64,000 nucleotides of DNA from NCBI RefSeq assembly GCF_045037415.1, contig NZ_CP173438.1, one strand, 5' to 3'. Of the stretch, positions 30,901 to 33,900 are shown piece by piece (position 1 is the first letter of the stretch; each line of letters begins with the position of its first letter). Source of the DNA: Escherichia coli (GTDB taxonomy: Bacteria > Pseudomonadota > Gammaproteobacteria > Enterobacterales > Enterobacteriaceae). A program made the position numbers.

Positions 30901-33900
30901 CTCTTGTTGCGAAAGCGCATTTTGCATTAAATGTTTTTTCAATGAGACGCCTCCATGATGACGACTCACTACACCACGCTTTTGCAACCACGCTAAATCT
31001 GTCCGAATCGTCTCTTTGGTAACAGAAAAATAGTTAGCTAAATCGCTAACACTGCACTCATCCTTGTTGCGAAGTAACCGGACAATATATTCACGACGGG
31101 TATCCCGATACATAAGTCTTCCTTTTTGATTTTATTATCACTAAAAAAGAAATTGTTATCGGGATTTTTATCAAGAAAAAAACAGGCAAGCAAAAACAAA
31201 CAAAAATATTATTCAGGCGAAACGATTCACCTAAAGATAATTAATATTTAGCTTACAAATAAAATAAAATTAATTATCCGTAACATATATAAATAACGTC
31301 AGGTAACGAAAGTAAGAGACTCCCCCTTCTTTCTTATTATTCACATCCAGCCCTAAACTCGCTCGGGCTGGCCCCGGTGCATTTTTTAAATACTCGCGAG
31401 AAATAGAGTTGATCGTCAAAACCGACATTGCGACCGACTGTGGCGATAGGCATCCGGGTGGTGCTCAAAAGCAGCTTCGCCTGACTGATGCGCTGGTCCT
31501 CGCGCCAGCTTAATACGCTAATCCCTAACTGCTGGCGGAACAAATGCGACAGACGCGACGGCGACAGGCAGACATGCTGTGCGACGCTGGCGATATCAAA
31601 ATTACTGTCTGCCAGGTGATCGCTGATGTACTGACAAGCCTCGCGTACCCGATTATCCATCGGCGGATGGAGCGACTCGTTAATCGCTTCCATGCGCCGC
31701 AGTAACAATTGCTCAAGCAGATTTATCGCCAGCAATTCCGAATAGCGCCCTTCCCCTTGTCCGGCATTAATGATTTGCCCAAACAGGTCGCTGAAATGCG
31801 GCTGGTGCGCTTCATCCGGGCGAAAGAAACCGGTATTGGCAAATATCGACGGCCAGTTAACCCATTCATGCCAGTAGGCGCGCGGACGAAAGTAAACCCA
31901 CTGGTGATACCATTCGTGAGCCTCCGGATGACGACCGTAGTGATGAATCTCTCCTGGCGGGAACAGCAAAATATCACCCGGTCGGCAGACAAATTCTCGT
32001 CCCTGGTTTTTCACTATGCCCTGACCGCGAATGGTGAGATTGAGAATATAACCTTTCATTCCCAGCGGTCGGTCGATAAAAAAATCGAGATAACCGTTGG
32101 CCTCAATCGGCGTTAAACCCGCCACCAGATGGGCGTTAAACGAGTATCCCGGCAGCAGGGGATCATTTTGCGCTTCAGCCATACTTTTCATACTCCCGCC
32201 ATTCAGAGAAGAAACCAATTGTCCATATTGCATCAGACATTGCCGTCACTGCGTCTTTTACTGGCTCTTCTCGCTGACCCAACCGGTAACCCCGCTTATT
32301 AAAAGCATTCTGTAACAAAGCGGGACCAAAGCCATGACAAAAACGCGTAATAAAAGTGTCTATAATCACGGCAGAAAAGTCCACATTGATTATTTGCACG
32401 GCGTCACACTTTGCTATGCCATAGCATTTTTATCCATAAGATTAGCGGATCCAGCCTGACGTTTTTTTTCGCAACTCTCTACTGTTTCTCCATACCCGTT
32501 TTTTTGGATGGAGTGAAACGATGGCGATTGCAATTGGCCTCGATTTTGGCAGTGATTCTGTGCGAGCTTTGGCGGTGGAATGCGCCACTGGTGAAGAGAT
32601 CGCCACCAGCGTAGAGTGGTATCCCCGTTGGCAGAACGGGCAATTTTGTGATGCCCCGAATAACCAGTTCCGTCATCATCCGCGTGACTACATTGAGTCA
32701 ATGGAAGCGGCGCTGAAAACTGTGCTTGCAGAGCTTTGCGTCGAACAGCGCGCAGCTGTGGTCGGGATTGGCGTTGACACAACCGGCTCGACGCCCGCAC
32801 CGATTGACGCCGACGGCAACGTGTTGGCGCTGCGCCCGGAGTTTGCCGAGAACCCGAACGCGATGTTCGTATTGTGGAAAGACCACACCGCGGTTGAAGA
32901 AGCGGAAGAGATTACCCGCTTATGTCACACGCCGGGCAACGTTGACTACTCCCGCAATATTGGCGGTATTTATTCCAGCGAATGGTTCTGGGCAAAAATC
33001 CTGCATGTAACTCGCCAGGACAACGCCGTGGCACAATCTGCCGCATCATGGATTGAGCTGTGCGACTGGGTGCCAGCTCTGCTTTCCGGTACCACCCGCC
33101 CGCAGGATATTCGTCGCGGACGTTGCAGCGCCGGGCATAAATCTCTGTGGCACGAAAGCTGGGGTGGCCTGCCGCCAGCCAGTTTCTTTGATGAGCTGGA
33201 CCCGATCCTCAATCGCCATTTGCCTTCCCCGCTGTTCACTGATACCTGGACTGCCGATATTCCGGTGGGCACCTTATGCCCGGAATGGGCGCAGCGTCTC
33301 GGCCTGCCTGAAAGCGTAGTGATTTCCGGCGGCGCGTTTGACTGCCATATGGGCGCAGTTGGCGCAGGCGCACAGCCTAACGCACTGGTAAAAGTTATCG
33401 GTACTTCCACCTGTGACATTCTGATTGCCGACAAACAGAGCGTTGGCGAGCGGGCAGTGAAAGGTATTTGCGGTCAGGTTGATGGCAGCGTGGTGCCTGG
33501 ATTTATCGGTCTGGAAGCAGGCCAATCGGCGTTTGGGGATATCTACGCCTGGTTTGGTCGCGTACTCGGCTGGCCGCTGGAACAGCTTGCCGCCCAGCAT
33601 CCGGAACTGAAAGAGCAAATCAACGCCAGCCAGAAACAACTGCTTCCGGCGCTGACCGAAGTATGGGCTCAAAATCCGTCTCTGGATCACCTACCGGTGG
33701 TGCTCGACTGGTTTAACGGCCGCCGCACACCGAACGCTAACCAACGCCTGAAAGGGGTGATTACCGATCTGAACCTCGCTACCGACGCTCCGCTGCTGTT
33801 CGGCGGTTTGATTGCTGCCACCGCCTTTGGCGCACGCGCAATCATGGAGTGCTTTACCGATCAGGGGATCGCCGTCAATAACGTGATGGCGCTGGGCGGC

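Follow-up and report, generated by a model that had tools for sequence, protein, structure and literature searches.

What controls an accessory operon that some Escherichia coli strains carry and others lack, and does the strongly AT-rich DNA in front of it take part in that control? The locus lies in a 64,000-nucleotide stretch of contig NZ_CP173438.1 (hereafter the window), which corresponds to the E. coli sgrR-thiBPQ-yabI ... araC-araBAD segment, reversed relative to K-12. Five extra genes are found here between yabI and araC, and since all of them lie on the minus strand with gaps of 9-54 bp, it is reasonable to speak of an operon start. The spacer between the araC stop and this start (31114-31336, 223 bp) has a GC content of 26.5%, versus 52.4% for the window. 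A preliminary description had taken this AT-rich spacer for one of the tracts that typify H-NS nucleation sites and curved promoter regions on acquired DNA, and for the likely control region of the operon and a possible site of xenogeneic silencing; its coordinates and composition were correct, and the sequence quoted there (aaataaaataaaattaattatccgtaacatatataaataacg) is located at 31259-31299. We propose, with a probability of about 70%, that the spacer and the five-gene operon arrived together, the spacer serving as a composite intergenic control region. Judged from its sequence, it would be a DeoR-family-controlled, possibly CRP-assisted catabolic promoter, probably under H-NS. It is thus an ordinary kind of feature, an AT-rich promoter region before an accessory operon, with a newly defined motif.

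The first operon gene encodes a 410-aa protein that combines a DeoR-type helix-turn-helix (HTH) and a PfkB domain (29881..31113, minus strand; ATG at 31113-31111). The upstream regions of this gene were aligned from nine taxa, namely E. coli, Klebsiella spallanzanii, Phytobacter, Citrobacter NCU1, two Vibrio species, Aeromonas, Dickeya and Rahnella, and the alignment splits the spacer into a proximal conserved footprint and a distal part that varies between genera. The footprint begins with an invariant 19-bp T-rich tandem repeat, TTTTTGTTTG TTTTTGCTT, with the consensus TTTTTGYTTRYTTYYGYTT (31188..31206, minus strand). It is made of two 10-bp direct repeats as half-sites, TTTTTGTTTG and TTTTTGCTT(G), located 12 nt upstream of an element that resembles a CRP site. 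The repeat sits 93 nt before the ATG in E. coli, and the TTTTTGYTTRYTTYYGYTT block is invariant and found 91-100 nt before the ATG in all nine taxa. Erwinia has the exact block at -95, and recognisable variants are present in Photobacterium and before two paralogues on a metagenomic contig, such that the repeat precedes every HTH-PfkB gene examined (exact in 10 taxa, diverged in three further genes). All 11 gene-bearing loci contain the exact pattern a single time and at the same place, and the eight loci that lack the gene do not contain it; in the 64-kb window it is unique, with 0.11 matches expected by chance. The upstream regions of Dickeya and Rahnella have a GC content of 52% and 46%, respectively, yet keep the repeat, which indicates a specific site and not a by-product of AT-richness; this conserved element accounts for much of the AT content of the proximal half. 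A diverged repeat also heads the nucleoside-hydrolase/DcuC operon of one paralogue, and thus the repeat follows the regulator gene and not the cargo. In CFT073-type strains, in which the operon has been lost, a relic of the spacer persists that lacks exactly the repeat block and the Shine-Dalgarno sequence. Based on these observations, we consider the repeat a candidate operator for the first gene product, which would bind it with its DeoR-type HTH.

A second conserved element, the 16-mer CTTGATAAAAATCCCG (31160..31175, minus strand), follows the repeat after a gap fixed at 12 nt in all nine taxa. Its GA-N6-TC is invariant, and it matches the CRP core TGTGA-N6-TCACA at 8/10 positions in six of these taxa, and in six to seven relatives overall. 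A -10 hexamer, GATAAT (31134..31139, minus strand), follows 20 nt after its end, and a -10-like hexamer with A2 and T6 is found in 9/9 taxa at a spacing of 19-21 nt. Transcription is predicted to start around 31127, giving a leader of ~14 nt, and the centre of the 16-mer would then lie at about -40.5/-41.5. The Shine-Dalgarno sequence AAGGAAG (31118..31124, minus strand) stands 4 nt before the ATG. The same layout recurs in Vibrio, Aeromonas, Dickeya, Rahnella, Erwinia and Citrobacter NCU1, in which the place of araC is taken by another upstream gene, unrelated or divergent. The earlier proposal of a control region for the island operon is therefore well supported: an operator-like repeat, a second conserved element, a -10 and a Shine-Dalgarno sequence occur within 100 bp of the ATG, with fixed spacing in at least 10 taxa including those with a different upstream gene. 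Promoter prediction for the kinase-regulator gene, proposed at the same time, gave the conserved -10 GATAAT and no good -35 (CCGATA).

Two further candidates in and around the spacer were set aside. A 9-bp inverted repeat, ATCCCGATA/TATCGGGAT (31102-31110 and 31157-31165), brackets the -10, the Shine-Dalgarno sequence and the ATG, and is not conserved in K. spallanzanii or Phytobacter. The top-scoring sigma70-like match, CTGACG-18-GATAAT (31273..31302, minus strand), falls in the variable distal part, and other genera do not share it; we did not retain it as the main promoter, and it probably reflects either chance in AT-rich DNA or a minor promoter. In Dickeya, a perfect CRP core (TGTGATGGCTTTCACA) was observed 167 nt before the kinase-regulator ATG, besides the 8/10 site at the conserved position (locus L015, ~5830-5850).

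How could these elements work together? In the mechanism that we infer for the binding proteins and the sign of regulation, the proximal part (31114-31206) would act as the operon promoter, reading from the repeat through 12 nt, GA-N6-TC, 20 nt, GATAAT and a ~14-nt leader with its Shine-Dalgarno sequence to the ATG. The HTH-kinase would bind the tandem repeat just upstream of the site of RNA polymerase or of an activator, and would autoregulate the operon in response to a sugar or sugar-phosphate ligand. The GA-N6-TC element may be placed as a class II activator site or as a surrogate of the -35; it would be a good CRP site in the relatives and a degenerate one in E. coli. The distal part (~31230-31336) would correspond to the 3' flank of araC, where two hairpins, the first of them a decayed terminator, are accompanied by AT-rich sequence that differs from genus to genus. 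H-NS probably also covers the AT-rich tract of ~300 bp, holding basal expression low.

The distal part can be read from the end of araC, the right neighbour of the five-gene block (31337-32182 as annotated in RefSeq relatives, minus strand). A stop codon TAA lies at 31337-31339, from which it follows that AraC here has 281 aa, and a second in-frame TAA at 31334-31336 (minus strand). AraC of 281 aa is also found in Klebsiella, Enterobacter, Buttiauxella and most other Enterobacteriaceae. The K-12 protein has 292 aa: the ancestral stop was changed from TAA to GAA and 9 nt were deleted (locus L001, 1644-1700; locus L009, 3835-3975), so that translation reads into the old araC-yabI intergenic region, and the K-12 AraC is thus a variant generated by loss of a stop codon. 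Directly 3' of the araC stop lies a decayed hairpin (31308..31333, minus strand; -8.7 kcal/mol, z -0.16). A hairpin at the same position is strong elsewhere, with -21 kcal/mol in CFT073-type E. coli, -17.5 in K. spallanzanii and -19.3 in Phytobacter (z -3.9 to -4.8), and the decayed one is probably the former araC terminator. A second hairpin with a 10-bp stem (31212..31235, minus strand; -11.7 kcal/mol, z -4.0) has a U-rich stretch 8 nt beyond the stem; confined to E. coli, it might terminate transcripts that read through from araC.

Where does this region come from? Of 5426 complete E. coli genomes, 571 (about 10%) carry the five-gene block, and 580 genomes have the full spacer at ≥99% identity, the exact matches listed including an O25b:H4 strain of sequence type 131 (ST131). 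A homologous empty site (araC, 85-128 bp, yabI) exists in K-12, K. pneumoniae and Enterobacter, and the site is also empty in E. coli 042, a strain for which hns-mutant RNA-seq exists. The stretch over which the haplotype diverges from K-12 opens at araC codon 277 and closes 8 nt short of the yabI ATG. At its right-hand junction, the last five araC codons 277-281 (AGG GCT GGA TGT GAA; 31340..31354, minus strand) are of island type, synonymous with those of K-12 and different from them at 5/15 nt. Its left end is formed by the island-type yabI upstream region (25758..25940), after which the identity to K-12 resumes. The same operon is found at the same site in K. spallanzanii and Phytobacter massiliensis, with an AT-rich spacer of 27-28% GC and a similar yabI upstream region; the DNA identity between E. 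coli and these genera is 72-76% for the operon genes and 77-80% for the flanking araC and yabI. The island itself has a GC content of 44.4%, and its flanks 53-55%. From these sequence comparisons, the block seems to be old in E. coli and to have passed from one enterobacterium to another through homologous recombination of its flanks, which would make the spacer part of the cargo DNA. Since homologous empty sites occur in three genera, and flanks of island type are common to more than one genus, we favour an import by flank recombination over an ancestral locus that was lost elsewhere, and in this sense the earlier attribution to acquired DNA is supported by the shared empty site and by flanks resembling those of K. 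spallanzanii and Phytobacter. The divergence of the operon is similar to that of core genes, which makes the direction uncertain.

Of the spacer and the kinase gene, CFT073/Nissle-type strains of phylogroup B2 retain a decayed relic that includes the first ~20 kinase codons; an IS630 fragment and c0078-c0080 come next (locus L003, 1640-1700 and 3490-3530; locus L017, 1218-1500). The 25-bp block of the candidate operator is deleted from this relic, as is the Shine-Dalgarno sequence. An orphan K-12-type araC 3' end adjoins yabI in these strains, and the insert of IS630 and c0078-c0080 is therefore flanked by an imperfect direct repeat of ~17 bp (TTCTTCACAACCGGCAC / TTATTCACAACCTGCCC). In strain 1162invT2 (NZ_CP051663.1), the island is interrupted by IS1 and matches in two pieces over a span of 6478 bp. 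The island-type yabI upstream region, with a -35 TTGACC and a -10 CACAAT, is common to K. spallanzanii and Phytobacter and differs from that of K-12, so that yabI expression may differ between E. coli lineages.

Several points weigh against the composite control region as we describe it. The T-rich block could be an UP element or the site of another protein than the HTH-kinase. The 16-mer matches the CRP core at 6/10 positions in E. coli and 5/10 in K. spallanzanii, which makes CRP dependence uncertain in E. coli. No good -35 is found 16-18 bp upstream of the -10 (CCGATA, 3/6); this is compatible with an activator-dependent promoter and would be explained by the class II geometry, with a centre near -41. 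An alternative promoter, TTGCTT-18-AAAAAT, whose -35 lies inside the repeat, scores about equally, and the sigma70 matrices behind these scores are approximate. As for the H-NS component, the high-affinity motif TCGATAAATT is unmatched in the tract within 2 mismatches (0.76 in composition-matched shuffles). With 12 A/T tracts, the AA/TT power at 10-11 bp is not above that of shuffles (fractions 0.23-0.49), and the curvature suggested in the preliminary description is unsupported, as the A-tracts have no 10-11 bp periodicity. Moreover, the AT-rich tract measures ~300 bp (below 35% GC in 100-bp windows), versus 1.8 kb at 34% GC for the CFT073 insert.

Could the tract instead be mainly a nucleation site on foreign DNA, with H-NS filaments silencing the operon and specific regulators being secondary? 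We regard this as possible, although somewhat less than probable. An equally low GC content is reached in only 0.19% of all 223-bp windows when the 64 kb are scanned, and these fall into four tracts, leuL-leuO, leuO-ilvI, the araC-operon spacer and caiT-fixA; the three others all flank genes with an H-NS signal, as leuL, leuO, yabR, caiT and fixA have raised values of 5.6-29 in chromatin immunoprecipitation (ChIP) from K-12 and CFT073 (PMC9765446). In CFT073, the relic of the spacer lies inside a strongly H-NS-bound block: the signal per gene is 7.72 for araC, compared with 1.08 in K-12, 55.6 for c0078, 74.0 for c0079 and 60.4 for c0080 (flagged bound), and 1.68 for yabI (PMC9765446 Data set S1A). 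Together with a 26.5% GC tract in a 44% GC island on a 52% GC background and a haplotype that looks imported, this speaks for H-NS at the locus. Yet, the signal in CFT073 can be explained by the adjacent c0078-c0080 insert, which ST131-type strains do not have; their operon genes, at 38-49% GC, are a poor substrate for the spreading of filaments, the tract has neither the motif nor the phasing of A-tracts, and distant genera with GC-rich upstream regions preserve every base of the T-rich core, as expected of a specific site and not of a compositional leftover. Based on this analysis, we consider it fairly probable that H-NS occupies the tract, as one layer of the composite control region. The only other tracts in the window with at most 30% GC are those at 12797-13047, 14026-14477 and 59247-59688, i.e. 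leuL-leuO, leuO-ilvI and the divergent promoter region caiT-fixA.

That the operon would have no promoter of its own, and be expressed by read-through from araC with the AT-rich DNA as a neutral filler, is unlikely: araC and the operon share a strand, the hairpin after the araC stop has decayed and no canonical -35/-10 pair is conserved, but the upstream architecture persists in the six groups named above in which araC is not the neighbour, and the second hairpin with its U-rich run stands between araC and the promoter block. Still less probable is that a mobile element brought in the island and that the tract is its scar or attachment site, as could be thought from the presence/absence polymorphism (571/5426 genomes), and from the direct repeat and IS630 fragment of the CFT073-type insert. 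In the ST131-type island we found no integrase, transposase, tRNA, or terminal or att-type repeats, and the occurrence of the same site and gene order in three genera, with the operon and flank identities given above, fits homologous recombination of the flanks. The least probable possibility, to which we give hardly any credit, is a small RNA or a small protein encoded in the spacer. Its minus-strand transcript is predicted to fold more stably than shuffled sequences (z -3.67), and short open reading frames of 41-53 aa overlap the spacer; these reading frames and the predicted long-range pairs lie where conservation between genera is lacking, and the pairing of T-runs with A-runs explains the low folding energy, so that we rejected a structured RNA. 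A small RNA or riboswitch was rejected as well, since an Rfam scan of 30800-31600 with E-values up to 10 returned two matches at chance level and none at E <1.

The 410-aa protein encoded by the first operon gene has its HTH_DeoR at residues 6-58 and the PfkB/ribokinase-like domain at residues 102-390. Its HTH scores as DeoR type, with GlpR, SrlR and AgaR as top HTH matches, and the ribokinase-like domain reaches 298.8 bits with TIGR02152 (cut-off 299.65). The nearest solved structure is the E. coli ribokinase 1GQT (E 3e-54), which covers the kinase domain only, and no solved structure spanning both the HTH and the kinase domains was found. The gene is followed by a lyase of the dihydrodipicolinate synthase (DHDPS) family (28932-29855), TctC (27924-28877), TctB (27438-27911, as an open reading frame) and TctA (25941-27428), all on the minus strand, and the block is bounded on the left by yabI (24993-25757). 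Behind the HTH-PfkB gene, the cargo varies between taxa: tripartite tricarboxylate transporters (TTT), a major facilitator superfamily (MFS) transporter and DUF386, or TRAP transporters, with the DHDPS lyase, or else a nucleoside hydrolase. In Aeromonas, Dickeya, Rahnella and Erwinia (loci L014, L015, L016 and L021), the kinase-lyase pair is followed by an MFS transporter in place of TctCBA, and a DUF386 (YhcH/NanQ-like) protein is also present in the Aeromonas, Dickeya and Rahnella loci, a layout that resembles a small nan-type operon. The metagenomic contig L019 (1770-3167 and 6840-8200) encodes two HTH_DeoR::PfkB paralogues, one in an operon with a nucleoside hydrolase and DcuC, the other with a TRAP transporter, a 2-hydroxyacid dehydrogenase and a DHDPS protein; upstream of both lie a variant T-rich repeat and a cATG-N7-TTCACA element. 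A metagenome-assembled genome labelled as Citrobacter sp. (DXKH01000096.1) encodes a kinase protein 100% identical to that of E. coli, probably owing to a binning error or a very recent transfer.

From its gene content (a carboxylate transporter, a lyase of the NanA superfamily, a pentose-type kinase and, in relatives, a DUF386/NanQ-like protein), one may speculate that the operon serves the catabolism of a 2-keto-3-deoxy sugar acid to pyruvate and a pentose, with 3-deoxy-D-manno-octulosonic acid (Kdo) as a candidate. The Kdo aldolase, EC 4.1.2.23, has been described as unannotated in E. coli BW25113 (PMC10619137). Our literature searches on the island, H-NS in ST131, HTH-ribokinase fusions and Kdo catabolism returned no paper on this locus, no H-NS ChIP or hns-mutant data set from a strain carrying the intact operon, no transcription-start data for it and no characterised HTH_DeoR-PfkB fusion, and both the operator motif with its fixed architecture and the DeoR HTH-ribokinase type of regulator appear undescribed in the literature searched. 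With low confidence, we would extend the proposal to HTH_DeoR::PfkB proteins at large: they might be a family of kinase-regulators ("trigger enzymes") that has so far escaped characterisation. Each would be the product of the first gene of its operon and would act via a T-rich tandem operator particular to the family (TTTTTGYTTRYTTYYGYTT), with constant spacing to a CRP-type site and a -10. The ST131-type member would then control an unrecognised mini-nan-like pathway in which a carboxylate transporter, a DHDPS-family lyase and a pentose kinase convert a 2-keto-3-deoxy sugar acid, Kdo being one candidate, into pyruvate and a pentose.

The spacer thus yields a testable map, with an operator, an activator-type site, a -10 and a Shine-Dalgarno sequence, for an uncharacterised operon found in ~10% of complete E. 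coli genomes. An operator motif conserved from Vibrio to E. coli offers a handle on a family of DeoR-HTH::ribokinase regulators of which no member has been described. The picture of the locus is also corrected, as the island haplotype starts inside araC and its carriers have the 281-aa AraC typical of other enterobacteria. Whether or not H-NS silences the operon would decide under which conditions the pathway is available to ST131.

In composition and size, the spacer resembles the H-NS-bound flanks of leuO and the caiT-fixA region, which are likewise intergenic with at most 30% GC over 223 bp; these have an H-NS ChIP signal at neighbouring genes, whereas the araC-operon spacer, likened to them by its sequence, has neither the high-affinity motif nor phased A-tracts. 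The regulator recalls known fusions of enzyme and regulator such as the trigger enzymes NadR and BirA and the ROK kinase/repressor family (NagC/Mlc), where a DNA-binding HTH and a kinase fold for small molecules likewise share one polypeptide, encoded within the pathway that it would control; the pairing of a DeoR HTH with PfkB sets the 410-aa protein apart from them. The promoter is similar to class II CRP-dependent promoters, e.g. of the galP1 and melAB type, with a 16-bp element of the TGA-N6-TCA type centred at about -41, no -35 and a catabolic operon downstream, the difference being that the E. coli element matches at 6/10 and could belong to the site of the HTH-kinase. A parallel to the candidate operator is found in DeoR-family systems with tandem, helically phased operators, such as AgaR/aga and GlpR/glp, whose regulators likewise have a DeoR-type N-terminal HTH; the AgaR consensus is reportedly WRMMTTTCRTTTYRTTTYNYTTKK, a T-rich TTTN repeat. 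As in those systems, 10-bp T-rich direct repeats lie here beside the promoter of a sugar catabolic operon that contains the regulator's own gene, but the C-terminal part of the protein is a ribokinase-like PfkB fold in place of the DeoR-C sugar-phosphate sensor domain of DeoR-family repressors.

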